DNA of 64,000 nt from a virus: IMG/VR virus record IMGVR_UViG_3300035152_000026, positions 86,002 through 150,001 of that record, one strand, 5' to 3'. Every line of letters starts with the position of its first letter. Position 1 is the stretch's first letter. Made by a program: the position numbers and the translations under genes. Of this stretch, positions 4,183-58,819 are shown piece after piece. The notes beneath the pieces are model-generated. The model was not told where the DNA came from and ran no database searches. It saw only the letters and a program-made list of their open reading frames with translations.

Positions 4183-4471
4183 GCGCGATGAGGCAAGAAC
4201 ACGAAGTACGGCAACTGCGCAAACAGCTCGATACCTACAGAAAACAGCACAATGTGTGACGCTCCGCTCTGCAACCGGCCCGCGCTCAAGTGGGATCTCT
4301 GCACTGCACATCTCGTGCTGTTCTGCCATCTCCTCGACCGCCGAATCGAAATCCCAGAATTTGACCGGCTCATGTCGTTGCCTACTGAAACCATGCTACA
4401 GGAACTCAACCGGCGTTTTCAGGTGCCCCAGTAAAAGACCCGACCGTCATTACCACTCCAGATGGTTTCAG

Positions 4472-4696
4472 ATTCGCGCGATGAATAGGCACTGGTGCTG
4501 CATTTGCGGAGCGGGATTCGAGACGGCGGGCGGACTGCGGCGCCATCTTCGGAACGTTCACTCCGAGGATACGGTAACCGATCACTCCTTTCGAGCGATT
4601 CGCTATTCGCACAACGGGCAACTACGAACAGGGAATTGCGCGATCTGCTATCGGCCCGCGCAATTGCACATGCGAGGTGAGCATGGAGACAGTTGA
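4472..4696 (+). CDS. C2H2-type zinc-finger protein
   Basis: MNRHWCCICGAGFETAGGLRRHLRNVH is a classic C2H2 finger. The upstream part of ORF 4061..4696 is probably non-coding overlap. Confidence 0.4.
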   Translation: MRAMNRHWCCICGAGFETAGGLRRHLRNVHSEDTVTDHSFRAIRYSHNGQLRTGNCAICYRPAQLHMRGEHGDS

Positions 4697-19586: not shown

Positions 19587-20060
19587 ATGATGCAAGCAAC
19601 AGCAGAGATTACCGAAGATGTATGGGCCCAACGACGTGCAGTGCGAGACCGCCTGAAAGCTGCGGTCAAACAGGCCAGCGGACGCAAAGCAACAGTCCTC
19701 TGCATGATGATTTCGCACATGCGGGGAAAGCTCCACTGCCAGAGCTATCAGAAGTACCACGGCGGCTGGCGATCCGTAGCGCAGCAACATGTCGAGGCCA
19801 TGCGCGCACGCAACCGGTTCGAGGAGCGGCTCGGGCCCGGCCAGGAACGCAAGTGGACCGAGTATCTCTTCGCCAGCTCGGTCATCGACACGCTCGACGA
19901 CCAAGCAGCATTTCTCCGCAAGTTCCTCGACGAGGAAGCCGTACAACGACGACGCTACGAGGAGGTCACGCAGAACGGGCGCCGCAAGCCGTACGTGTGG
20001 GAAACTCCTATGTTCGACGAGGAGTTGTGCAACATCTGCAAGGAGGTTTCGGCGACCTGA
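19587..20060 (+). CDS. hypothetical protein
   Basis: 157-aa ORF with GAAAGGA upstream. Confidence 0.4.
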   Translation: MMQATAEITEDVWAQRRAVRDRLKAAVKQASGRKATVLCMMISHMRGKLHCQSYQKYHGGWRSVAQQHVEAMRARNRFEERLGPGQERKWTEYLFASSVIDTLDDQAAFLRKFLDEEAVQRRRYEEVTQNGRRKPYVWETPMFDEELCNICKEVSAT

Positions 20061-20095
20061 CAGAATACGTCAGGCCTGGCCAGTATAGTCAGGCC

Positions 20096-21154
20096 ATGCT
20101 CACATCACCCTGTGACCTAGATCGGCCACCATTCGATGACCTGCACAGCTTCCGGTATTGGCGTAGGCAGGGCTATGTGCCTACCGCGCGGCTCGATGGC
20201 CGGAAAGAGTGGGGAGAGGTCTGTCATCTCCGCTGCCAATCGGATTCAAGTGTCGTAGCGTGTCCTAACAACATTGCCGGTGTACTTGCGTTAGAACGCC
20301 TCCACCAGGCTGTGGTCACGCGAACGTTCTTCGATCCGAAGACAGCACATGACACGGGTACGATCTACGTGACATTGATCCCACGTCCTGTCGTAGACTG
20401 GTTCTCGACATGCACGACGTCGGACGTCCACGAACAGATTGTGCTCTATCTCGGATTGCACATTGCACTCGGAGGCGACCAAGCGCTAATCCTACGTGAC
20501 ACTGCTCGTAAGTATCACGACAAGATTGTCAAACGCGTTGATACGTTACTCCGTGATCACCCCGATCTCCGCAACGATGAGCACGTCGTTGACTTGTCAC
20601 GTTACACGTCGAGTTTGCCTCCTTGGTTTCGACCCGAGCAAGTAACGTACGATAACCGTCGCCTGTGGACACTGCCGCCGCTGTGTCATATACCCTGGCC
20701 GAGGCGCACCAACCGGTGGGACACTTTTGGGATCATCAACTACCGGCTGACGGAAGTTGACGAAAAAAGGATCGACGACCACGAAAGCGATCCGCTTGAT
20801 CGCGCTGAGTCCTGCCCAGACGCGTTCGAGCACTTGCTCTATGCGCGTCACGCGAAAGACGCTTGGGCGACGATGTTTCAATCCGAGGATGACAACACAG
20901 GTGCTATCTATCTCATCCAGGATGGGCGTGGGCGTGTCAAAATCGGATGGACGGATAGTACACCTGCGAAGCGGCTAGCCGCACTACAGACCGGCAACGC
21001 TGATACGCTGCGGCTGCTAGGCACTATCCCCGGAACGCGAGAACAAGAGAAATATCTACACGCGAGATACGCCGACCAGAAAGCCCGTGACGAACGAACC
21101 GAATGGTTTTGTCTCACGCCAGCTGACGTGTTGGAGATTCTACGTGTGTCATAG
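20096..21154 (+). CDS. T5orf172 / GIY-YIG-like domain protein (C-terminal domain)
   Basis: The C-terminus (GAIYLIQDGRGRVKIGWT...RLAALQTGN...EQEKYLHARYA...EWF) matches the T5orf172/MUG113 family. The start is set at the first plausible Met; the 5' 474 nt of ORF 19622..21154 is the alternate frame of the upstream gene. Confidence 0.5.
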   Translation: MLTSPCDLDRPPFDDLHSFRYWRRQGYVPTARLDGRKEWGEVCHLRCQSDSSVVACPNNIAGVLALERLHQAVVTRTFFDPKTAHDTGTIYVTLIPRPVVDWFSTCTTSDVHEQIVLYLGLHIALGGDQALILRDTARKYHDKIVKRVDTLLRDHPDLRNDEHVVDLSRYTSSLPPWFRPEQVTYDNRRLWTLPPLCHIPWPRRTNRWDTFGIINYRLTEVDEKRIDDHESDPLDRAESCPDAFEHLLYARHAKDAWATMFQSEDDNTGAIYLIQDGRGRVKIGWTDSTPAKRLAALQTGNADTLRLLGTIPGTREQEKYLHARYADQKARDERTEWFCLTPADVLEILRVS

Positions 21155-21178: not shown

Positions 21179-21251
21179 ACACCCGTAGCTCGAAGGCCGA
21201 GCGTGCAGTCTGTGGAGCTGCAAGGTGGGGGTTCGATTCCCTCCGGGTGTA
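21179..21251 (+). tRNA. isolated tRNA-like gene with an ambiguous anticodon arm (9-nt loop, or 6-bp stem with GTG)
   Basis: Acceptor ACACCCG/CGGGTGT, D-arm GCTC/GAGC, T-arm GGGGG-TTCGATT-CCCTC (identical to the T-arm of tRNA-Thr at 54409). The anticodon region is TGCAG-TCTGTGGAG-CTGCA. Confidence 0.45.
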
Positions 21252-21262
21252 CCGGAGGATCG

Positions 21263-31636: not shown

Positions 31637-31986
31637 GGTAACGTTCTTTTAGCACGTGGGTGTGACCACCCTGCTCGACGCCGCAAACGAGCCTCCCTGA
31701 CTAGCTCAGCGTTTCGATGCACTTCAGCTTCCGCTACGATACGGGTAGCGCCAGCCTTGTGATCAGACTGCGGATTTGGTCCGATGAGGCTGACGAAGTC
31801 GGGCAACGAATCCGCAGCGACAAGCGTCGCAGTGTAGGAGTCCAACACGTAAGCCTTGACTTCCCCGACACACGTCACCCAGCCGACCACGTTCCGCAAT
31901 CGTGGCTGCGTGGCGTCGTGGTCCTCATAGATCGCGAAGTAGCCCGAAGCTGCGGTACAGAAAGTCATTTGCGCAGGTTTAGACAT
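31633..31986 (-). CDS. hypothetical protein
   Basis: 117-aa ORF overlapping its neighbours by 4-8 nt. Confidence 0.4.
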   Translation of the reverse strand: MSKPAQMTFCTAASGYFAIYEDHDATQPRLRNVVGWVTCVGEVKAYVLDSYTATLVAADSLPDFVSLIGPNPQSDHKAGATRIVAEAEVHRNAELVREARLRRRAGWSHPRAKRTLP

Positions 31987-34900
31987 CTGCCCAGCTCCGG
32001 CCTTTCGCAGGGTCTACCGAGAAGTGAATCGTGACGCCGTTATGTGTGTGAGTCTGCTCGAAGCAGTCTTTGACGTCAGTCATCAAGCGGTCGCCGTCAG
32101 CCTCGTCGCACTCGAAAACGATGGCGTCGTGGATCTGGATGATCGGGTCAGCGTTGGAGTATTCGTTGCGTAGCTTTGGCATCAAACGGAGGAGCCCAGT
32201 GGCCATGATGTCAGCTCCAGTCGACTGAACCGGGAAGTTGTACACGTCGTTCATGTCAGCGTTGCCCAGAGGGAAACACCGTCGCCGACCGTAGATTGCC
32301 GACCGCAGCTCGTGCGGTGGCTGGGCAACGTCTCGCAGAAGCTTCTGATGCCACGCCGTAACGCCGGGCATCCGCGCGGTCATCAACGCGACCATCCGCG
32401 CGATGTCAGCCTGCTTTACGTCCGGGTAGTCCTTGACCACGTTCTTCCAGAGCGTGTCGATCGACCCTCCGTAGAATGCCCCATACTCGGGCCGCTTGAC
32501 CGTATCGCGGAGAACCTTGCGGCGCTCATAAGGTAACTCGTCGAAGTTGGGCCAAACGATGCGTGCGAACTCGCTGTGGATATCCTTCCCGTCGTTGAAG
32601 ATCGCGCACAGGAATGGATCGCCGGAAAGAAGTGCGATGATTCGTGCTTCTAGCTGCGCGAAGTCGAAGCCAACAAGGATCCGTCCAAGGCGTGCTTCAA
32701 ACTGTTTGCGGAGATTTGGGCGCCCCTTCTTCGCGTCAGCTTTCGGCACGTTCTGGCAGACTGGATCTTCAGCACTCCATCGGCCTGTGATCCGATGGAC
32801 ATTCCACCGCGGATGCACGCGACTGTTCGCGTCTGCATAGCCGTACTTGACGATGTTGCCCTGTTCGTCATATCGATCAAAGAGCGCGTAGACGAAGGTA
32901 GAGAACAGTTTCTGATTCTCGCGGTAGTCCAACAGGCTACGTACTTCGGGGATGTGCGCGAAGCTTTCCAGGATCTCTTTCTTCGTGGACGTCGAACCCT
33001 TCTCGGTCAGGAAGTAGAGCGGCACTCCACGAGCCTTTAGATAACCAACGATGTGATCCGAGGAGCCAACGTTCCACTCCCACGTAGCTTTATCGATGGA
33101 ATCGAGCAGCTCTTGCAGGCGTACCTTTTGTCGCTCCCGATAGTCTTCCGGATCTGGCTCTTTACCTTTTGGGTTACGTGCGAACTTCGCTTGCTCGGCT
33201 GCAATGCCAACCCATAGCTCTTCCTGGATCTCAGGCCGGGCAGCGTCGTCCTCAACGATCTTACGGAGCGCTTCGTTTTCCTTGTCGCTACGCCACGCGT
33301 AGAGTGCTTGGATGGCTGGGTGCTTGTCCGCGTGATCTTTGAGCCACGCCTTCGTGATGCTGGCCGCACCCTTTTTGGTCAGGGGCACATCAAGCCCGTG
33401 GACCTTCAACCAACCAGCAAGATGCGCCGACGAATTGATTTGCCACTTCCAAGCGCCTCTGTCTGCGGCGATCCGAATTTCGTCCAAGCGAACCTGTTGT
33501 CGGGCCTCGTAGCGTTCGGGGTCCTGTTTGGCCGCAGTCCCTTTGCGAACACGCTTGGCTTGCTCTGCCGCGATGCGATCAAGCAGCTTGTCGCGGATCT
33601 CAGGGTTGTTAGCCTTCTCTTCGATTTCTGCACGCGCCCGCTGCATGTTCTGCCAGAACTGATCGTAGAGCTGTTGATTCACCTCCTGTGAAACCGGGAT
33701 GCCCGCGTCGTACATCCATTCCGCGGCTTCTGCGCACAGAAGATCAATCTCGTAGCACTTCGCAGACTGTGTGCGCGCGATGGCGATATCGAGGGGCTCG
33801 TCGAGGCGTGCGGTAACTAGTGTGTCCTTGGCGTTATAGATTACGAGGTTCTCAACCGTGTCTTTGCCTTCACGGAACTCCGATTTCCACGGCGTGATCG
33901 CGAAGTACTGCGTAGCCGCGCGTTGCAGGTTGTGCGAAAGGCCAGGAAAGGCTGCGTGGTGTTTGAGCAACGTGTCATCGACTGGACCGTGTACGGGCAT
34001 TCCATGCCGTTTCAAAACACCACGGTCATATATCGAGTTGTGGAACACGACACGAACAAGCGGATCGGCCATAAGCGCAGCCATGAGGCGCTTGGCCATC
34101 GGTGTGACGATGTTCCATGCTATCGAAAGGCCCCACTTTGGGGTAGCGAAGCCGATGGCGGTCAACTTTGCGTTGATGGGCTGTAGTGCAGAATGCTGTT
34201 GCTCGTTGTCTACGTAGGTCTCGGTGTCGCAGGCTACCATGCGCTCTCTGCGAGCATCTTGCACCATCCGACGCATAAGCATCTCGGCGCGTCTGGCGTC
34301 AGCGTACTCGACGACGATGTCCTCCTCGCGGAAGACGATATCGCGTCCGGCAGCGATGGCCTTCACCTTCGCTGCGTCGTACATCAGATTCCAGAAAGCA
34401 ATGTCTGGCGAGTGCGCGCCGCCAATTCCGGCGCCCCCGCGGAGGATTGCCGCAGGGTGAATCGTTGGGATGACTGCGCGGTAGCCTGAACCGTCCGCGT
34501 TGACCTGATGATAGGAGCCCGCCAACGCCTGGATCGAAGTGTTGCGCCCGAGGAATGCGCGAGTTGCCACAGCACCGAGGGCGAGCACAGGAAGGCCTGG
34601 GCGCTCAACCATCTCTGCGGTAAAACGTGGCTCGCAGCACTTGCGGGCCTTTTCTTTCAAGTTGTCGTCAGCCTCTGGTGGCGGTCGGCACAACGTAACG
34701 TTAGACACCCACAAGCGGCGCCGATCTTGCCCAACGGCTGTGAGTGCTTTGTTGACCAACTGCCCGCTAGCGCCAACGAACGGACGGCCTAAAGCAGCTT
34801 CGTGCTGACCCGGACCTTCACCAATGACAATCCATTCCGGCGTCGCTGACCCCTCCCCAACAACAGGTTGGTTAGGTTGTCTATTTCTGGCTAGTGGACA

Positions 34901-34993
34901 ATCTTCACACAGCGCGCCCTCGATGCGCCCACGAATCATCGGTGCAGGTCCTGCACGTAGAACAGGACTCTGTCCTTGCGGACGTAACCGCAT
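31979..34993 (-). CDS. polA: DNA polymerase I-family (family A) polymerase with an N-terminal family-4 uracil-DNA glycosylase-like domain (UDG-PolA fusion)
   Basis: N-terminus: GEGPGQHEAALGRPFVGASGQLVNKAL...HPAAILR (UDG family 4 motifs). C-terminus: DFAQLEARI (motif A), RRKVLRD...YGAFYG (motif B), QIHDAIVFE (motif C). 1004 aa. Confidence 0.85.
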   Translation of the reverse strand: MRLRPQGQSPVLRAGPAPMIRGRIEGALCEDCPLARNRQPNQPVVGEGSATPEWIVIGEGPGQHEAALGRPFVGASGQLVNKALTAVGQDRRRLWVSNVTLCRPPPEADDNLKEKARKCCEPRFTAEMVERPGLPVLALGAVATRAFLGRNTSIQALAGSYHQVNADGSGYRAVIPTIHPAAILRGGAGIGGAHSPDIAFWNLMYDAAKVKAIAAGRDIVFREEDIVVEYADARRAEMLMRRMVQDARRERMVACDTETYVDNEQQHSALQPINAKLTAIGFATPKWGLSIAWNIVTPMAKRLMAALMADPLVRVVFHNSIYDRGVLKRHGMPVHGPVDDTLLKHHAAFPGLSHNLQRAATQYFAITPWKSEFREGKDTVENLVIYNAKDTLVTARLDEPLDIAIARTQSAKCYEIDLLCAEAAEWMYDAGIPVSQEVNQQLYDQFWQNMQRARAEIEEKANNPEIRDKLLDRIAAEQAKRVRKGTAAKQDPERYEARQQVRLDEIRIAADRGAWKWQINSSAHLAGWLKVHGLDVPLTKKGAASITKAWLKDHADKHPAIQALYAWRSDKENEALRKIVEDDAARPEIQEELWVGIAAEQAKFARNPKGKEPDPEDYRERQKVRLQELLDSIDKATWEWNVGSSDHIVGYLKARGVPLYFLTEKGSTSTKKEILESFAHIPEVRSLLDYRENQKLFSTFVYALFDRYDEQGNIVKYGYADANSRVHPRWNVHRITGRWSAEDPVCQNVPKADAKKGRPNLRKQFEARLGRILVGFDFAQLEARIIALLSGDPFLCAIFNDGKDIHSEFARIVWPNFDELPYERRKVLRDTVKRPEYGAFYGGSIDTLWKNVVKDYPDVKQADIARMVALMTARMPGVTAWHQKLLRDVAQPPHELRSAIYGRRRCFPLGNADMNDVYNFPVQSTGADIMATGLLRLMPKLRNEYSNADPIIQIHDAIVFECDEADGDRLMTDVKDCFEQTHTHNGVTIHFSVDPAKGRSWADV

Positions 34994-54480: not shown

Positions 54481-54484
54481 CTGA

Positions 54485-54558
54485 TCCCTCGTAGCTCAAT
54501 TGGTAGCAGCACCTGGCCGTTAACCAGGGGGTTATCCGTTCAAGTCGGATCGAGGGAG
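54485..54558 (+). tRNA. trnN: tRNA-Asn (GTT), D-stem with a one-base insertion
   Basis: Acceptor TCCCTCG/CGAGGGA, anticodon CCTGG-CCGTTAA-CCAGG, T ATCCG-TTCAAGT-CGGAT. Confidence 0.55.
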
Positions 54559-54626
54559 CTACTGGTAGTCAAAGGAAAGGCCCTCGTTGACTAACGCAGG
54601 ATCGTACTCTCAGGTACCTTAGAGCT

Positions 54627-55136
54627 ATGGAATGCGCCAAGTGCCACGAAGAGTTTCCTACTCGAATAGTCATAGACGGGAAGGTGCGGAACCTGTCGAG
54701 TCGTAGGTACTGCGTTTCCTGCTCCCCATTTGGGGCTAACAATCGGAAGAAGATCCACATCCACGATATAAGACGTAAGCCGACTAGGTGTAGGTTGTGC
54801 TCAGGGAAGCTAGTCCCCGGGAAAGGGGATGTATGCTACACCTGTCGATCTAGGATTAGGCGATATCGGGTGAAGGTTGCGGCTATAACCCTCCTTGGCG
54901 GAAAGTGTCAACGCTGTGGTTTCTCAGGGAGTCCAGCAGCCTTTGAGTTCCACCACAACGGTAAGAAGGACTTTCAGATCAGCGAGAACAGCAACCGAGC
55001 GTGGGCTGTAGTCAAGAAGGAAGTTCTGAAATGCGAACTCCTGTGTTCCAATTGCCATCGACAGGAGCACACTGGAGATAGGGGGGAGGCGTTCCTTCGT
55101 GCCGTAGCGGAGTACAGAGGGATGCCCCTGACCTGA
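54627..55136 (+). CDS. HNH endonuclease inserted in the tRNA array (homing-endonuclease-like)
   Basis: Cys pairs CAKCH/CVSC and CQRCG; FEFHH...CSNCHRQEH is the HNH motif. Local GC is lower than the flanks. Confidence 0.7.
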   Translation: MECAKCHEEFPTRIVIDGKVRNLSSRRYCVSCSPFGANNRKKIHIHDIRRKPTRCRLCSGKLVPGKGDVCYTCRSRIRRYRVKVAAITLLGGKCQRCGFSGSPAAFEFHHNGKKDFQISENSNRAWAVVKKEVLKCELLCSNCHRQEHTGDRGEAFLRAVAEYRGMPLT

Positions 55137-55138
55137 CT

Positions 55139-55209
55139 GGCTTCGTAGTCAAGTGGCAAGGCACGGGTCTGCAAAACCTGTATCGTGGGTTCGACTCCCA
55201 CCGAAGCCT
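55139..55209 (+). tRNA. trnC: tRNA-Cys (GCA)
   Basis: Acceptor GGCTTCG/CGAAGCC, anticodon loop CTGCAAA, T GTGGG-TTCGACT-CCCAC. Confidence 0.6.
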
Positions 55210-55253
55210 CCGCAAAGCAAGCATTCCCAGTGACGAGGGAAAACACGTCCTCT

Positions 55254-55325
55254 GGCCTCGTCTGCTAACGGTCAAGCAGCTGGTCTTTCAAGCCAGCAAT
55301 CCGAGTTCGATTCTCGGCGGGGTCA
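55254..55325 (+). tRNA. trnE: tRNA-Glu (TTC)
   Basis: Acceptor GGCCTCG/CGGGGTC (two G-U pairs), anticodon CTGGT-CTTTCAA-GCCAG, T CCGAG-TTCGATT-CTCGG. Confidence 0.55.
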
Positions 55326-55329
55326 CAAC

Positions 55330-55402
55330 CGGAGCGTAGGGTATTTGGCAACCCGCTTGGTTTGGGACCAAGAGCATGCAGGTTCGAGTCCTGTCGCTCC
55401 GA
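55330..55402 (+). tRNA. trnP: tRNA-Pro (TGG)
   Basis: Acceptor CGGAGCG/CGCTCCG, anticodon CTTGG-TTTGGGA-CCAAG, T GCAGG-TTCGAGT-CCTGT. Confidence 0.7.
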
Positions 55403-55403
55403 C

Positions 55404-55475
55404 CGGGGTGTAGCGAAGCGGTATCGCGCATGGTTCGGGACCATGAGATCGCTGGTTCGATCCCAGCCACTCCGA
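55404..55475 (+). tRNA. trnP: tRNA-Pro (CGG)
   Basis: Acceptor CGGGGTG/CACTCCG, anticodon CATGG-TTCGGGA-CCATG, T GCTGG-TTCGATC-CCAGC. Confidence 0.7.
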
Positions 55476-55479
55476 CTGA

Positions 55480-55550
55480 TCCCCTGTAGCTCAACAGGAG
55501 AGCACTCGCTTGATAAGCGAGAGATGACAGCGCAACTCTGTCCGGGGGAA
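55480..55550 (+). tRNA. trnI: tRNA-Ile (GAT), atypical T-loop CGCAACT
   Basis: Acceptor TCCCCTG/CGGGGGA, anticodon CTCGC-TTGATAA-GCGAG. Confidence 0.55.
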
Positions 55551-55555
55551 CTGAT

Positions 55556-55630
55556 GGTGGGCGTAGCTCAATGGCAGAGCGCGCGGTTGTGGCCCGCGTG
55601 ATGGAAGTTCGATTCTTCTCGCTCACCCCA
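55556..55630 (+). tRNA. trnH: tRNA-His (GTG) with encoded G-1, C73 discriminator and CCA
   Basis: G-1 precedes acceptor GTGGGCG/CGCTCAC. Anticodon CGCGG-TTGTGGC-CCGCG. T GGAAG-TTCGATT-CTTCT. Confidence 0.7.
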
Positions 55631-55644
55631 AGAAGTCATAGTTA

Positions 55645-55680
55645 GAGCGGGAAGTGCAGGTTCGATTCCTGTCGGTTGCG
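55645..55680 (+). pseudogene. orphan tRNA 3' fragment (T-arm GCAGG-TTCGATT-CCTGT plus acceptor-like 3' strand); decayed partial duplicate of the tRNA-Pro(TGG) 3' half
   Basis: AGTGCAGGTTCGATTCCTGTCGGTTGCG vs the Pro 3' half GCATGCAGGTTCGAGTCCTGTCGCTCCG. There is no room for a 5' half after tRNA-His. Confidence 0.4.
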
Positions 55681-55721
55681 GTCGCCGCGCCGTGGTGTAA
55701 CAAGGGAGCACGCTCGCGTTT

Positions 55722-55793
55722 GGAGCTGTAAGCATCTGGTGAGGCTACCGGTCTGTCTAACCGGCGAGGCGGGTTCAATTCCCGTCAGCTCCG
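55722..55793 (+). tRNA. trnD: tRNA-Asp (GTC)
   Basis: Acceptor GGAGCTG/CAGCTCC, anticodon CCGGT-CTGTCTA-ACCGG, T GCGGG-TTCAATT-CCCGT. Confidence 0.65.
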
Positions 55794-55865
55794 CGGCTAG
55801 AGGTGTGGCGCGAAAGCGAAGCCCTAAACCGTCACCTCCGAGCGGGTGCGAGGCCCGCATTTGTT

Positions 55866-55936
55866 GGCCCAGTAGCACAACGGCAGGGCGCTTGCCTTAT
55901 AAGCGAGTGATCTAGGTTCAACTCCTAGCTGGGCTA
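55866..55936 (+). tRNA. tRNA-Ile (TAT) (rare AUA-reading anticodon as encoded)
   Basis: Acceptor GGCCCAG/CTGGGCT, anticodon CTTGC-CTTATAA-GCGAG, T CTAGG-TTCAACT-CCTAG. Confidence 0.5.
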
Positions 55937-55947
55937 CAAATCCGTTT

Positions 55948-56020
55948 GCCACCCAAGCTAACCAAGTGGAAGCGCCGGCCTGAAAAGCCGGAGGGCTCGG
56001 AGCGTTACCGAGGAGTGGCA
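55948..56020 (+). tRNA. tRNA-Phe (GAA)-like with a non-canonical T-loop
   Basis: Acceptor GCCACCC/GAGTGGC (one mismatch), anticodon CCGGC-CTGAAAA-GCCGG (canonical Phe loop), T-like CTCGG-AGCGTTA-CCGAG. Confidence 0.35.
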
Positions 56021-56067
56021 CGGCCAAGAGACGGACGCGTCTCCGAGCGGGTGGAAGGCCCGCACAA

Positions 56068-56139
56068 GGGCCAATAGTGATAAAGGGAACACGCTGCTTT
56101 CGCACGGCAGAGATCTGGGTTCGATTCCCAGTTGGTCCA
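56068..56139 (+). tRNA. trnA: tRNA-Ala (CGC)
   Basis: Acceptor GGGCCAA/TTGGTCC, anticodon CTGCT-TTCGCAC-GGCAG, T CTGGG-TTCGATT-CCCAG. Confidence 0.55.
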
Positions 56140-56306
56140 CAATGCAGGAGCACGTACCTGCCTTGCTGCTGGGCGAACAGACAGCGTAGTCGGGCTTAGC
56201 TAGCTGCGGACTTGCTGGGAGCTTCCAGTATTGGCCTCTGAGGAGGGACGCCTCTGTTCGAGGAGGAGACAAAAACGTGTCGGCGGGGTTAGTTCCTCGT
56301 CGTTAT

Positions 56307-56379
56307 GGGCACCCATGTACCAAGGGGGCGATCTGGCCTTGCAAGCCGGATGTGGTCGGTTCGATCCCGACGGTGTCCA
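56307..56379 (+). tRNA. tRNA-like, Ala (TGC)-type anticodon loop CTTGCAA, irregular D-arm
   Basis: Acceptor GGGCACC/GGTGTCC, T GTCGG-TTCGATC-CCGAC. The D region does not fold canonically. Confidence 0.35.
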
Positions 56380-56403
56380 CGAGCGGGTGGAAGGCCCGCC
56401 TAA

Positions 56404-56475
56404 GGGCTGCTAGTGATAACGGGAACACATCTGGTTTGCACCCAGAAGATCGGGGTTCGATTCCCCGGCGGTCCA
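56404..56475 (+). tRNA. trnA: tRNA-Ala (TGC)
   Basis: Acceptor GGGCTGC/GCGGTCC, anticodon TCTGG-TTTGCAC-CCAGA, T CGGGG-TTCGATT-CCCCG. Confidence 0.55.
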
Positions 56476-56479
56476 CGAC

Positions 56480-56551
56480 GCCCTCGTAGCTCAATGGAGA
56501 GAGCACTCGCCCGGTACGCGAGAGATGACAGTTCGATTCTGTCCTTGGGCT
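56480..56551 (+). tRNA. tRNA-Thr (GGT)-like, two acceptor-stem mismatches
   Basis: D GCTC/GAGC, anticodon CTCGC-CCGGTAC-GCGAG, T GACAG-TTCGATT-CTGTC. Acceptor GCCCTCG vs CTTGGGC. Confidence 0.4.
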
Positions 56552-56558
56552 CTGATTC

Positions 56559-56627
56559 GCCTCTGCCGGTGGAGCCGGACTCCGGGCTACGAACTCGGAA
56601 GACGAGGTTCGATTCCTCGTAGAGGCA
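56559..56627 (+). tRNA. trnR: tRNA-Arg (ACG), compact D-arm (69 nt)
   Basis: Acceptor GCCTCTG/TAGAGGC, anticodon CCGGG-CTACGAA-CTCGG, T CGAGG-TTCGATT-CCTCG. Confidence 0.55.
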
Positions 56628-56631
56628 CGAT

Positions 56632-56699
56632 GCCACTGCTGGTGGAACAGATTCGGGTCTCCTAAACCTGAAGAGATGGTTCGACTCCGTCCAGTGGTA
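56632..56699 (+). tRNA. trnR: tRNA-Arg (CCT), compact D-arm (68 nt)
   Basis: Acceptor GCCACTG/CAGTGGT, anticodon CGGGT-CTCCTAA-ACCTG, T GATGG-TTCGACT-CCGTC. Confidence 0.55.
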
Positions 56700-56702
56700 C
56701 TT

Positions 56703-56770
56703 GCCTCTACTCATGGATGAGGCGCTGCTCTTCTAAAGCAGCTACTCGGGTTCGATTCCTGATGGAGGCG
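56703..56770 (+). tRNA. trnR: tRNA-Arg (TCT), compact D-arm (68 nt)
   Basis: Acceptor GCCTCTA/TGGAGGC, anticodon CTGCT-CTTCTAA-AGCAG, T TCGGG-TTCGATT-CCTGA. Confidence 0.55.
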
Positions 56771-56774
56771 CTTT

Positions 56775-56849
56775 TGCGGGGAGGTTGCTAGTTACCTGTC
56801 AGGTCTCATAAGCCTGACCACGCTGGTGCAATTCCAGCCCCCGCTACCA
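56775..56849 (+). tRNA. trnM: tRNA-Met (CAT) with unpaired 1:72 and encoded CCA, T-loop TGCAATT
   Basis: Acceptor TGCGGGG/CCCCGCT (T-T at 1:72), anticodon CAGGT-CTCATAA-GCCTG. Confidence 0.5.
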
Positions 56850-56923
56850 CGCAGCGACCTACGGGTTAGGCGGCTCGTCTCATAAGCGAGACCGTGAGGG
56901 TCCGATTCCCTCCGCTGCGACCA
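56850..56923 (+). tRNA. tRNA (CAT): elongator Met or Ile2 (lysidine) type
   Basis: Acceptor CGCAGCG/CGCTGCG, anticodon CTCGT-CTCATAA-GCGAG, T GAGGG-TCCGATT-CCCTC, CCA encoded. Confidence 0.55.
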
Positions 56924-56924
56924 C

Positions 56925-56997
56925 GCCGGTCAGCTCACCTGGGGGTGGGACCTGCCTTACAAGCAGGACGCGCTGAGTTCGATTCTCAGGACCGGTA
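56925..56997 (+). tRNA. trnV: tRNA-Val (TAC)
   Basis: Acceptor GCCGGTC/GACCGGT, anticodon CCTGC-CTTACAA-GCAGG, T CTGAG-TTCGATT-CTCAG. Confidence 0.65.
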
Positions 56998-57131
56998 CTG
57001 ATGCGGCCACAGCTAGTCGAAGTTTCGGCAGGGCGGTTGTAGTGACCGTCCCTAGTGGATCGATTCACGGGCTCTAAGGGATTGGAGAGAAGGTCTCCAT
57101 CGGGCGATGGGCTGCATCTTTTGCCTGTGTA

Positions 57132-57205
57132 CCCCAATTGGAAGAGGGAGCGCGCTCAGAACGCGTACAGTGTCAGTTCGAGTCTGACCACAGGTACTCG
57201 CCTCC
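57132..57205 (+). tRNA. tRNA with anticodon CAG (a Leu codon reader) on a class-I scaffold (short variable arm)
   Basis: Acceptor GCCTGTG/CACAGGT, anticodon GCGCG-CTCAGAA-CGCGT, T GTCAG-TTCGAGT-CTGAC. The variable arm is only 4 nt. Confidence 0.45.
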
Positions 57206-57208
57206 GTG

Positions 57209-57279
57209 ATGAAGTGGTGTCATACCTGACCTTTAATCAGGCTACGAGGGTTCGAGTCCTTCCGGGGGCACAAAGCGGG
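57209..57279 (+). tRNA. trnK: tRNA-Lys (TTT)
   Basis: Acceptor GCCTCCG/CGGGGGC, D ATGA/TCAT, anticodon CCTGA-CCTTTAA-TCAGG, T GAGGG-TTCGAGT-CCTTC. Confidence 0.6.
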
Positions 57280-57283
57280 CGTG

Positions 57284-57357
57284 ATGTTCAACGGCCAGCA
57301 TGCGAGGCTTCCAACCTCGTCGTATGGGTTCGAGTCCCATCGTCCGCTCTACTCGGG
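57284..57357 (+). tRNA. trnG: tRNA-Gly (TCC)
   Basis: Acceptor GCGGGCG/CGTCCGC, anticodon CGAGG-CTTCCAA-CCTCG, T ATGGG-TTCGAGT-CCCAT. Confidence 0.65.
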
Positions 57358-57361
57358 GTTG

Positions 57362-57435
57362 ATCCAATGGCAAGATACTCGGCTTTGACCCGAGCAATCT
57401 GGGTTCGAGTCCCAGACCCCGAACCATTCCGGCTT
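57362..57435 (+). tRNA. trnQ: tRNA-Gln (TTG), CCA encoded
   Basis: Acceptor TCGGGGT/ACCCCGA, anticodon CTCGG-CTTTGAC-CCGAG, T CTGGG-TTCGAGT-CCCAG. Confidence 0.65.
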
Positions 57436-57436
57436 C

Positions 57437-57507
57437 GTCTAACGGTAGGACCCACGACTCTGGATCGTGGTATCGGGGTTCGAGTCCCTGAGCCGGAGCT
57501 GCCACCG
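57437..57507 (+). tRNA. trnQ: tRNA-Gln (CTG)
   Basis: Acceptor TCCGGCT/AGCCGGA, anticodon CACGA-CTCTGGA-TCGTG, T CGGGG-TTCGAGT-CCCTG. Confidence 0.65.
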
Positions 57508-57509
57508 TG

Positions 57510-57583
57510 CCCCAATTGGAAGAGGGTCTCGGCTAAGGACCGAGGTGTTGAGAGTTCGAGTCTCTCCGGTGGTACGACGCCCG
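57510..57583 (+). tRNA. tRNA with anticodon AAG (Leu CUN reader if inosine-modified) on a class-I scaffold
   Basis: Acceptor GCCACCG/CGGTGGT, anticodon CTCGG-CTAAGGA-CCGAG, T GAGAG-TTCGAGT-CTCTC. Paralog of the CAG tRNA (shared D region CCCCAATTGGAAGAGGG). Confidence 0.45.
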
Positions 57584-57587
57584 AGTG

Positions 57588-57666
57588 GTGGAAGGGCATA
57601 CACGGCTGGCCTAAACCCAGCTGCTTCGGCGTGAGAGTTCAAATCTCTCCTCGGGCACGATAAGCT
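57588..57666 (+). tRNA. trnL: tRNA-Leu (TAA), class II
   Basis: Acceptor GCCCGAG/CTCGGGC, anticodon GCTGG-CCTAAAC-CCAGC, variable arm TGCTTCGGCGT, T GAGAG-TTCAAAT-CTCTC. Confidence 0.6.
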
Positions 57667-57672
57667 CAGATG

Positions 57673-57752
57673 GTGGAATAGGCATACACGTCCGTCTCAA
57701 AAGCGGATGCTTCGGCGTGAGGGTTCGAGTCCCTCTCTGAGCACGGACAGCA
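57673..57752 (+). tRNA. trnL: tRNA-Leu (CAA), class II
   Basis: Acceptor GCTCAGA/TCTGAGC, anticodon TCCGT-CTCAAAA-GCGGA, variable arm TGCTTCGGCGT, T GAGGG-TTCGAGT-CCCTC. Confidence 0.6.
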
Positions 57753-57770
57753 ACCAGAAAGGAGCGAGTC

Positions 57771-58319
57771 ATGGACACGTTGGTTCTCGATCAGTCCTAC
57801 TTGCCCGTGGCGCGGATCCACTGGCAACGTGCAATCACTTTGCTCTTCCTTGGCAAGGTAGAGGTCGTGGATGAATACACCGACAGAAACATCCGGTCGG
57901 TGACGTTCTCGATCAAGATGCCATCCGTCGTTCGATTCATCACGCGGATGCGACGAAAGAAGCGTGTCGTGAAGTTCTCACGCGAGAACGTCTACACACG
58001 CGATCACGGAAGGTGCCAGTACTGTGGAGATCAAGTGCCACGTCTGGAGGCTACCTATGATCACGTTGTGCCGCGAACGCTCGGCGGGCAAACGACCTGG
58101 GAGAACGTAGTCATCTGTTGCGTAGCGTGCAACCAACAGAAGGGTGGACGAACGCCACAACAAGCCGGCATGCGACTACGATCGAAGCCGGTGAAGCCAA
58201 AGAAGCTGCCTGACGTACACATCACAGTGACGTGGACGCCCGGCATGCCCGAGGCGTGGCGTGCATGGACATGGAAGGTAAACCAGGCGGGGCCTGGGCC
58301 TGCCTCGAAAGCAGCGTGA
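57771..58319 (+). CDS. HNH endonuclease (HNHc domain) inserted in the tRNA array
   Basis: CQYCG...YDHVVPRTLGG...NVVICCVACNQQKG is the canonical HNH motif. Confidence 0.75.
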   Translation: MDTLVLDQSYLPVARIHWQRAITLLFLGKVEVVDEYTDRNIRSVTFSIKMPSVVRFITRMRRKKRVVKFSRENVYTRDHGRCQYCGDQVPRLEATYDHVVPRTLGGQTTWENVVICCVACNQQKGGRTPQQAGMRLRSKPVKPKKLPDVHITVTWTPGMPEAWRAWTWKVNQAGPGPASKAA

Positions 58320-58363
58320 GCGCAAGCTTGGGGATCGAGACCTCTGCCTTCCGCATGCAGTTG

Positions 58364-58447
58364 GAGAATGAATCAGGTGTGGACCTGAGCCCGGTTGGAA
58401 ACCGGTGCGTGCGCAGCTGCGCATAGTGTTCGACTCACTCGTTCTCC
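58364..58447 (+). tRNA. trnS: tRNA-Ser (GGA), class II
   Basis: Acceptor GAGAATG/CGTTCTC, D TCAG/CTGA, anticodon loop TTGGAAA, palindromic variable arm GCGCAGCTGCGC, T AGTG-TTCGACT-CACT. Confidence 0.5.
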
Positions 58448-58525
58448 GCCGGTTCGGTAGTAAAGCATTCGGTTACTTCGCTTGAGGAGCGAGAGATGTT
58501 GGTTCGACTCCAACCCGGGTTACCG
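58448..58525 (+). tRNA. tRNA-like with anticodon loop TTGAGGA (GAG) and canonical T-arm GTTGG-TTCGACT-CCAAC; no acceptor pairing found
   Basis: The T-arm and an anticodon arm TTCGC-TTGAGGA-GCGAG are clear. The 3' strand CCGGGTT has no complementary 5' partner. Confidence 0.3.
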
Positions 58526-58582
58526 GTGGTGTAATGGCAACACGCTAAACAAACCGAGCGCATCGTTCTCCGAACCACTTTT

Positions 58583-58665
58583 GGAAGCGCTAGCCGACAG
58601 GTGACGGCACTCGGCTTGAACCCGAGCGAGCATATGCCTTGGGGGTTCGATTCCCTCCGCTTCCG
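58583..58665 (+). tRNA. trnS: tRNA-Ser (TGA), class II
   Basis: Acceptor GGAAGCG/CGCTTCC, anticodon CTCGG-CTTGAAC-CCGAG, variable arm containing GCATATGC, T GGGGG-TTCGATT-CCCTC. Confidence 0.6.
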
Positions 58666-58675
58666 CTTTCGCCCT

Positions 58676-58759
58676 GGAAGGTAAATTCGTGGTGGCGCGA
58701 AGCCCGGCTGCTAACCGGTGCGTCCCTGACGGGATCAGGTTCGACTCCTGTACCTTCCG
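58676..58759 (+). tRNA. trnS: tRNA-Ser (GCT), class II
   Basis: Acceptor GGAAGGT/ACCTTCC, anticodon loop CTGCTAA, long variable arm, T TCAGG-TTCGACT-CCTGT. Confidence 0.55.
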
Positions 58760-58819
58760 CGGCTAACCCAACGCAATAGAGTCCTAACCGTGCAGAATCG
58801 TTGTTGATTGTCGTGTAAG

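Follow-up and report, generated by a model that had tools for sequence, protein, structure and literature searches.

Can a tRNA gene that has no room for a canonical D arm still encode a working, decoding tRNA? The question is raised by four genes in a 64,000-nucleotide (nt) stretch of viral DNA, positions 86,002 to 150,001 of IMG/VR record IMGVR_UViG_3300035152_000026. We refer to this whole stretch as the window and use its own coordinates throughout. It is part of the genome of an uncultured large phage, has a G+C content of ~58%, and contains an array of ~40 tRNA genes covering all 20 amino acids (53887-58760, + strand). Three Arg genes (anticodons ACG, CCT and TCT) and one Trp gene (CCA) are the sole Arg and Trp tRNAs of this array, and all four are unusually compact. 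An initial annotation, made from the letters alone, had described them as tRNAs with a mitochondrial-like minimal D-arm.

Our answer is that the four genes probably encode functional elongator (i.e., decoding) tRNAs, and that they do so as members of a conserved compact-core class of phage tRNAs. We give this reading a probability of roughly 0.8 on the basis of sequence evidence, including the covariation found in homologues from other phages.

Anatomy of the four genes

A canonical tRNA has, in order after the acceptor stem, the U8/N9 connector, a D stem of 3-4 bp with a loop of 7-11 nt, position 26 and a 5-bp anticodon stem. Our own cloverleaf parser requires the acceptor stem, the anticodon arm and the T arm, leaves the D region free, and outputs the spacer between the acceptor and anticodon stems. 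This spacer is 16 nt in Arg-ACG, 15 nt in both Arg-CCT and Arg-TCT, and 14 nt in Trp-CCA, versus 18-21 nt in 28 other parsed tRNAs of the array (24 nt in Tyr), which bears out the description of these loci as genuine tRNA genes whose D region is strongly reduced. For Arg-CCT, the parser gave 56635-56699 with a 12-nt spacer, and we reset the acceptor start by hand to 56632. The initial annotation had listed the Trp gene together with the Arg genes at 56559-56770; it is compact as claimed, but it lies outside that interval, ~2.6 kb upstream.

The acceptor stem, T arm and anticodon loop are canonical in all four genes: seven of seven acceptor pairs and five of five T-stem pairs are formed, the T-loop reads TTCGAYT and the anticodon loop CU-NNN-AA. 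The canonical D-region geometry, however, is absent. A D hairpin of 3-4 bp starts directly after acceptor position 7 in every gene, leaving a connector of zero nt, and what would be U8 is a paired C or G. The D-loop is 5 nt in Arg-ACG, 4 (or 6) nt in Arg-CCT, 4 nt in Arg-TCT and 3 nt in Trp, and it keeps its GG in all four genes and also A20 in the Arg genes. Between the D hairpin and the 5-bp anticodon stem are three bases, and the third of them can pair with the base that opens the 4-nt variable region (T-A, T-A, G-C and G-C). With that pair counted, the anticodon stem of each gene is 6 bp, the connector before it is 2 nt and the variable loop is 3 nt. The extra stem pair and the short variable loop accompany the D reduction, and both are additional to what had been annotated.

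tRNA-Arg(ACG) occupies 56559-56627 (+ strand; 69 nt with the discriminator, no encoded CCA). Its acceptor stem is 56559-56565 / 56620-56626, followed by the D hairpin CCGG-TGGAG-CCGG (56566-56578), the linker AC (56579-56580), the anticodon stem (56581-56586 / 56594-56599) around the anticodon at 56589-56591, the variable loop AGA (56600-56602), the T arm (56603-56619) and A73 at 56627. tRNA-Arg(CCT), at 56632-56699 (+ strand; 68 nt), has its 5' acceptor strand at 56632-56638, the D hairpin CTG(G)-TGGA-(A)CAG at 56639-56650 with a G.A mismatch innermost, the linker AT, a 6-bp anticodon stem, the anticodon at 56661-56663, the variable loop AGA and A73 at 56699. tRNA-Arg(TCT), at 56703-56770 (+ strand; 68 nt), starts with acceptor strand 56703-56709 and D hairpin CTCA-TGGA-TGAG (56710-56721), then has the linker GC, anticodon stem 56724-56729 / 56737-56742, anticodon 56732-56734, variable loop TAC and G73 at 56770. 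tRNA-Trp(CCA), at 53887-53953 (+ strand), begins with acceptor strand 53887-53893 and D hairpin GATC-TGG-GATC (53894-53904), followed by the linker AG, a 6-bp anticodon stem, the anticodon at 53915-53917 and the variable loop CAG; G73 is at 53953 and an encoded CCA follows at 53954-53956.

A conserved and covarying family

We built two covariance models, both with the window excluded. The first (R1) was made from 43 compact Arg tRNAs of other phages and of contigs from metagenome-assembled genomes (MAGs), and its family geometry is 7 / 0 / 4-4-4 / 2 / 6-7-6 / 3 / 5-7-5 / 7 with NGGA in the D-loop. The second (R2) was made from seven compact Trp tRNAs of other phages, with geometry 7 / 0 / 4-3-4 / 2 / 6-7-6 / 3 / 5-7-5 / 7, NGG in the D-loop and G73. 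R1 scored Arg-CCT at 74.4 bits (E 2e-16), Arg-ACG at 72.0 bits (E 9e-16) and Arg-TCT at 68.8 bits, within the range of family members at other loci (50-85 bits), and its match to Arg-CCT spans 56632-56699 end to end. The best canonical tRNA of the window reached 45.5 bits with its D arm skipped. R2 scored the window Trp gene at 83.6 bits (E 2e-20), and its next match in the window was the compact Arg-TCT at 42.8 bits. The matches of the two models to the four genes (E 1e-15 to 1e-20) are therefore far beyond chance.

Covariation was assessed in two alignments. The Arg alignment (A2) holds 45 distinct 68-nt sequences without gaps, with the structure 7 / 4-4-4 / 2 / 6-7-6 / 3 / 5-7-5 / 7. In it, 97.0% of cells are paired versus 67.9% in shuffled alignments (none of 500 shuffles reached the observed value), and only 32-46% are still paired when the partners are shifted by 1-3 columns. 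Pairing in the D hairpin amounts to 92.8%, and all four of its pairs have changes on both sides. Of the 45 sequences, 44 form the pair next to the acceptor stem and 43 form the sixth pair of the anticodon stem (CG 31, UA 8, GC 4).

The Trp alignment (A3, eight sequences) has 96.6% pairing. Pairing in its D hairpin is complete (100%), and three of the four pairs have double changes (GATC/GATC, CTTC/GAAG, GTTC/GAAC, CCCC/GGGG and CCTC/GAGG), while the sixth anticodon-stem pair is weaker (5/8). When compact tRNAs are compared with canonical tRNAs of the same arrays, the 26x44-type (sixth) pair is Watson-Crick in 74% versus 19%, and U is present at position 8 in 14% versus 78%. In A2, the second connector base and the middle variable-loop base (columns 21 and 42) are C:G in 33 of 45 sequences and switch together in six, which hints at a tertiary contact, but common ancestry could account for the pattern.

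These results refine the earlier picture of a mitochondrial-like minimal D-arm. The D-loop is small, as had been said, but the D stem is present, is 92.8-100% paired and carries compensatory changes, and G18-G19 and the T loop are kept. Judged by the models and alignments together, the four genes are members of a compact-core class of phage tRNAs which is conserved, covaries and also occurs in the cultured Myxococcus phage Mx1.

The three Arg genes had also been called tandem paralogs. They are paralogues indeed, but old ones within the family and not the product of a recent tandem triplication: outside the anticodon, their identity to the copies of other phages is 63-78%, and they are not each other's nearest relatives.

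Recurrence in other phages

Finding relatives of the window required a suitable anchor. An exact-protein look-up returned the same phage alone, from three samples, which is useless for covariation. In IMG/VR there was no match for the neighbouring SNF2 helicase or for the exact 33-nt Arg tRNA string, and the helicase was dropped as an anchor because its homologues (48-60% identity) sit on contigs without an adjacent tRNA array. Two HNH-type endonuclease open reading frames (ORFs) interrupt the array of the window. The second in-array ORF (54627-55136) led to one distant locus with no tRNAs. Against the isolate phages of INPHARED, the array DNA had a single match, tRNA-sized (73 nt) and in one record.

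The HNH endonuclease at 57771-58319 (+ strand; Pfam HNH_5 and HNH matches) proved to be a syntenic anchor for related arrays. Searching with it found an IMG/VR contig (L007) with 70% identity and the same tRNA order, as well as 80 metagenome loci with 50-72% identity, many of which have same-strand arrays. Its best matches among isolates were Myxococcus phage Mx1 (51%) and virus Rctr197k (47%). In total, 45 distinct 68-nt Arg sequences and eight distinct Trp sequences were gathered from viral contigs, Myxococcota-rich MAG contigs and Mx1.

The Arg block of Mx1 (ACG, CCG and CCT) is entirely compact and lies at 480-694 of locus L089, i.e., ~51522-51736 of OR576727.2. In L007, the Arg block that follows Thr-GGT has canonical ACG and CCT genes and a compact CCG gene. 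A fourth Arg candidate of Mx1 (TCT; L089 5286-5351) is more extreme: its D hairpin appears to have only 2 bp, and its anticodon arm to be very long. L007 also has a tmRNA gene within its tRNA array (4192-4543, + strand; tag ANAVANDNDVALPLQAAA).

We also searched with the probe GCC-N9-GGA-N12-CTNCKAA-N13-GTTCNANNC, which fixes a short distance from the 5' end to GGA and leaves the D-stem bases unspecified. Among the genomes of 185,579 species, each represented once, there were 33 matches, 18 of them true cloverleafs. All 18 are within tRNA arrays, mostly on MAG contigs labelled Kofleriaceae or Myxococcales, with the rest labelled Steroidobacteraceae, Pirellulaceae or unclassified Proteobacteria. 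In IMG/VR, 21 of 23 matches were true, on contigs of 17-465 kb, and all but two of these true loci have neighbouring tRNA genes. The probe matched no stand-alone (housekeeping) tRNA-Arg gene. No equivalent structure-blind probe can be designed for compact Trp tRNAs, because their distance from GG to the anticodon is the canonical one and their 5' end has no fixed bases.

The presence of compact-Arg arrays on Kofleriaceae, Myxococcales and Polyangiales bins (L091-L122) points to Myxococcota hosts, via prophages or integrated elements. The G+C content of the window is well below Myxococcota genome values. On a 1.1-Mb Myxococcales contig (L117), the array holds the same HNH gene and, as in Mx1, is flanked by a Ro60-type gene; Ro60/TROVE proteins are encoded beside the tRNA arrays of both relatives.

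Across 55 arrays with 660 distinct tRNAs, compact forms make up 13 of 20 Trp, 8 of 23 CAT-anticodon and 5 of 40 Ala tRNAs, and there are none among Asp, Glu, His, Lys, Leu, Asn, Gln, Ser or Val. The Arg count in this set is inflated by the later GGA-based probe. The HNH-anchored arrays alone have compact forms of Arg-ACG in 5/9, Arg-CCG in 6/9, Arg-TCT in 1/7 and Arg-CCT in 1/11 (or two, if one counts the window copy which the parser misregistered). As far as these arrays indicate, the compact class consists largely of Arg and Trp tRNAs together with some of the CAT and Ala tRNAs.

The window itself has two CAT-anticodon tRNAs that lie next to each other. The one at 56850-56923 (+ strand) has a reduced D arm (A / CCTA-CGGGT-TAGG / CGG) with a 17-nt spacer and an encoded ACCA end. 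Its acceptor, CGCAGCG, marks it as one of a recurrent 'CGCxxCG' family of CAT tRNAs with small D hairpins, also present at L007, L038, L046, L066 and L088. The first one, at 56775-56849 (+ strand), has a T1.T72 mismatch, the T-loop TGCAATT and a D-loop without GG, is followed by an encoded CCA, and may be initiator-like. Neither has any Rfam tRNA match, and ARAGORN finds them at a lowered threshold alone. Compact Ala tRNAs with D hairpins such as CTAT-TGGG-ATAG occur in related arrays (L009 702, L066 2308, L046 6316 and L088 10637), and the Ala-TGC gene of the window (56307-56379, + strand) has a full-length but odd D region (CATGTACCAAGGGGGCGAT) and no U8.

Decoding and charging

How might such tRNAs work? 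The retained elbow between GG and the T-loop, the acceptor/T-stem branch and the anticodon loop would together give an L-shaped adaptor, which would then be charged by the host arginyl- and tryptophanyl-tRNA synthetases (ArgRS and TrpRS) and used by the ribosome. The U8-A14, 15-48 and 46-22 tertiary contacts would be lost from the core. The sixth anticodon-stem pair, and perhaps a pair between the connector and the variable loop, may substitute for them, as in the pyrrolysine tRNA (tRNAPyl).

In E. coli, the identity rules are A20, C35 and U/G36 for Arg, the anticodon and G73 for Trp, G3.U70 for Ala and the CAU anticodon for Met. We infer charging by the host because the phage tRNAs match these rules in A20, G73, G3.U70 and their anticodons. 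All 11 compact Arg tRNAs (spacer of 17 nt or less) that had been listed before the GGA-based probe was used have GGA (G18, G19 and A20) in their D-loop, G73 is present in every compact Trp tRNA bar one that has a 5-nt variable loop, and compact Ala tRNAs retain G3.U70. Encoded CCA is about as frequent in compact tRNAs (40%) as in their canonical neighbours (36%). Compaction occurs mainly in Arg, Trp, Met-type and Ala tRNAs, for which the synthetase is known to read the anticodon, the acceptor end or A20 and not the core. This suggests that it is tolerated if identity is independent of the core.

All six Arg anticodons occur across the compact family. In the window, Arg-ACG would read CGU, CGC and CGA after A34-to-I editing, Arg-CCU would read AGG, Arg-UCU would read AGA and AGG, and Trp-CCA would read UGG. 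The initial annotation had the three Arg genes covering CGN, AGG and AGA; this stands for AGG and AGA but not for the whole CGN box, since ACG (as ICG) cannot read CGG. Among the Arg codons of 17 confident ORFs of the window, CGU/C/A make up 76%, CGG 18%, AGA 3% and AGG 3%.

Alternative explanations

The alternative that survives best, though we consider it improbable, is that the four genes encode tRNA-like RNAs which act outside translation, e.g., as nuclease decoys, as processing punctuation or as ligands of Ro60- or vault-like ribonucleoproteins (RNPs) encoded nearby. Ro60/TROVE genes do adjoin the arrays of relatives, the window does encode a protein like the Major Vault Protein (MVP), and phage tRNAs are documented to counter tRNA-targeting host defences (PMC10264068, PMC11555353, PMC12409363). 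A decoy, however, could dispense with A20, G73, the complete range of Arg anticodons, the canonical acceptor/T branch and the encoded CCA. It would also not have to be the sole Arg and Trp species of an otherwise complete array.

There is far less to be said for decaying pseudogenes, i.e., Arg and Trp genes that were once canonical, underwent deletions in the D arm and fell into disuse. Two facts agree with decay: the genes score no higher than the curated threshold of the general tRNA model, and L007 has canonical Arg-ACG and Arg-CCT genes at the same array position. But decay should not leave the same geometry in 45 Arg and eight Trp sequences that are ~63-78% identical, with compensatory changes in every helix. 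The anticodon loops, the identity elements and the frequency of encoded CCA are also intact, and the array has no other Arg or Trp genes. Covariation therefore largely refutes decay, and we regard this explanation as very unlikely.

Least credible of all is that these are ordinary tRNAs which we parsed wrongly, with a normal D arm in another register: ARAGORN in its default mode does give Trp a length of 73 nt and a 4-bp D stem, and draws Arg-TCT in a shifted register, but such registers need mismatched, wobble-rich acceptor stems and a T stem of 4 or 3 bp and lose the G73-CCA end (we rejected the default Trp drawing, with its 4-bp T stem, on these grounds), the compact register is the one conserved in homologues, and there is no other fold in which the D arm is normal, because 14-16 nt cannot hold 2 + 4 + 7 or more + 4 + 1 nt.

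Five observations weigh against the conclusion that the four genes are functional elongator tRNAs of a compact-core class. First, the minimum-energy folds of the single Arg-CCT and Arg-TCT sequences are alternatives, so the compact cloverleaf is the minimum-energy fold in only two of four genes (Arg-ACG and Trp); we treated single-sequence folding as uninformative and let the comparative evidence decide. Second, no CCG tRNA was found in the window, though CGG makes up nearly a fifth of its Arg codons. Third, the window is 64 kb of a larger genome, and canonical Arg or Trp genes could lie elsewhere in it. Fourth, compact and canonical Arg isoacceptors are often mixed in related arrays, so the compact form is not obligatory. 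Fifth, the link between compaction and identity rests on textbook identity rules from E. coli.

Performance of standard tools

The Rfam tRNA model (RF00005) has a gathering score of 29 bits. Arg-ACG scored 29.0 bits, a borderline value reached solely in a search of 401 nt, while Arg-CCT scored 23.2-26.3 bits and Arg-TCT 27.7 bits, and the alignments of these compact genes skip the D arm as a local end. Trp had no match to this model, and its best match in the clan was tRNA-Sec at 26.7 bits versus a gathering score of 47. Since the compact class sits at or below the curated threshold of the general model, tRNA repertoires and codon coverage reported for phages may undercount Arg and Trp.

ARAGORN in its default mode missed Arg-ACG, placed Arg-TCT in a register that is off by 3 nt and misregistered Trp. 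We also ran its mitochondrial mode, which the initial annotation had put forward as a check. That mode filed three of the four genes (Arg-ACG, Arg-CCT and Trp) as having a D-replacement loop, a drawing which we rejected as wrong because the D stem covaries.

The compact Arg trio of Mx1 is found by ARAGORN, missed by Rfam at the gathering threshold and absent from the stretch of the GenBank record that we examined. That record also omits several canonical tRNAs, four Ser, a Val and a CAT tRNA among them, so the annotation gap in Mx1 is weak evidence that the compact shape causes omission.

Comparison with known tRNAs

For the bovine mitochondrial tRNA-Ser(UCN), the connector is a single base, the D-loop is small, the anticodon stem is extended and the variable loop is short. 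In tRNAPyl, at most one base separates the acceptor stem from the D stem (some deltaN forms have none), the D-loop is 5 nt (or 3-4 nt), the anticodon stem is 6 bp and the variable loop is 3 nt, giving a compact core within an L shape (PMC11764691). The same source cites mitochondrial tRNA-Ser(UGA) as the sole look-alike of tRNAPyl in secondary structure (PMC11764691). The compact cores of tRNAPyl and mitochondrial tRNA-Ser(UCN) are the closest counterparts of the phage design. We found comparable designs in tRNAPyl and some mitochondrial tRNAs alone. The initial view that D-arm reduction is unusual for bacteria and phages holds.

In the phage family, as in tRNAPyl, the connector is short or absent, the D-loop is small, the anticodon stem is 6 bp and the variable loop is 3 nt. 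Several features set the two apart. While tRNAPyl has a CUA anticodon and lacks the elbow nucleotides G18G19 and T54-Psi55-C56, the phage family has Arg or Trp anticodons, an invariant GG in the D-loop and a TTCRAYT T-loop. It also has two nt between the D and anticodon stems, and its genes are in phage tRNA arrays. No gene for pyrrolysyl-tRNA synthetase (PylRS) was present among the 37 ORFs of the window that we scanned. Mammalian mitochondrial tRNA-Ser(UCN), by description, differs in being organellar and A/U-rich with another identity, whereas the phage tRNAs are G+C-rich and have a canonical elbow.

The likeness to the armless tRNAs of nematode mitochondria did not hold up. The phage genes do resemble the D-armless mitochondrial tRNAs of nematodes and mites in being short overall with a reduced D region, but their D stem exists and covaries and their T arm and elbow are canonical, which indicates compaction instead of arm loss.

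Selenocysteine tRNAs (tRNASec) and allo-tRNAs offer another comparison: their D-loop is a tetraloop, as it is in the phage genes, and tRNA-Sec was the best Rfam clan match for Trp. However, they have acceptor/T branches of 13 bp or a rearranged 12 bp (8/5, 9/4, 8/4 or 9/3), a 6-bp D stem and a long variable arm, whereas the phage genes have a 7/5 branch, a D stem of 3-4 bp and a variable loop of 3-4 nt. Some allo-type tRNAs are present in phage tRNA clusters (PMC5389517).

In layout, the array is like the canonical arrays of Mx1-like and other large phages, with ~40 tandem tRNAs, HNH interruptions and a conserved order (Thr-GGT, then the Arg block). It is unlike them in that a subset (Arg, Trp, some CAT and some Ala) has the compact core.

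We found no description of a compact-core class of phage tRNAs in the searchable literature. A 2020 review devoted to natural non-canonical tRNAs contains no mention of phages (PMC7609411). In a 2023 catalogue of structured RNAs from IMG/VR, unnamed candidates overlap ARAGORN tRNA-Arg calls (PMC10690425), and these may or may not be the same family as the compact Arg tRNAs.

Other features of the window

The window encodes a ribonucleotide reductase, several helicases, a Dam-type methylase and a thymidylate kinase. It also encodes a family-A DNA polymerase as a single ORF of 1004 amino acids (31979-34993, - strand), with an N-terminal domain of the uracil-DNA-glycosylase (UDG) superfamily and a 3'-5' exonuclease domain. 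In INPHARED, this polymerase has distant relatives alone (<31% identity). An 868-amino-acid ORF (45486-48092, + strand) matches the shoulder and repeat domains of MVP, and a YspA/SLOG-like protein is encoded at 48166-48639.

Three further observations concern tRNAs other than the compact ones. A second tRNA-His(GTG), isolated at 21179-21253 (+ strand), lies 32 kb upstream of the array and directly after an ORF with a T5orf172/MUG113 domain (19622-21154). The tRNA-Phe(GAA) at 55948-56020 (+ strand) has an aberrant T-loop (AGCGTTA) and no U8; it scores 36 bits with the Rfam tRNA model, and ARAGORN misses it at default settings. The spacer between His and Asp (55630-55721, + strand) holds an isolated T-arm-like segment, GCAGGTTCGATTCCTGT, without a recognisable cloverleaf, and this may be a tRNA remnant.

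Implications

Why a phage would compact some of its tRNAs invites speculation. One possible advantage is that compact tRNAs would evade nucleases or enzymes which depend on the canonical core for recognition. The compact core could then be an adaptive phage design which evades tRNA-targeting defences, modification enzymes or the phage's own shut-off of host tRNAs while still being charged by the host. We regard this as a tentative idea that is unlikely to be right, though less so than any of the alternatives to function weighed above. If it were true, the family would be a naturally 'orthogonal' set of Arg, Trp, Met-type and Ala tRNAs that arrived at the same solution as tRNAPyl, in large Mx1-like phages of Myxococcota and other soil bacteria.

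The conclusion that the four genes are functional elongator tRNAs of a compact-core class does not depend on that idea. It would extend a core of the type known from tRNAPyl and mitochondrial tRNA-Ser(UCN) to ordinary amino acids, and to the viruses of bacteria. The design appears to be evolutionarily stable, with dozens of divergent members and covariation in every helix. The RNP-type protein genes that adjoin phage tRNA arrays may merit separate attention. As compact tRNAs with a canonical elbow, the members of this class are also potential scaffolds for tRNA engineering. Mx1 and Myxococcus xanthus form a cultured pair with three members of the class, so the class is open to direct testing.

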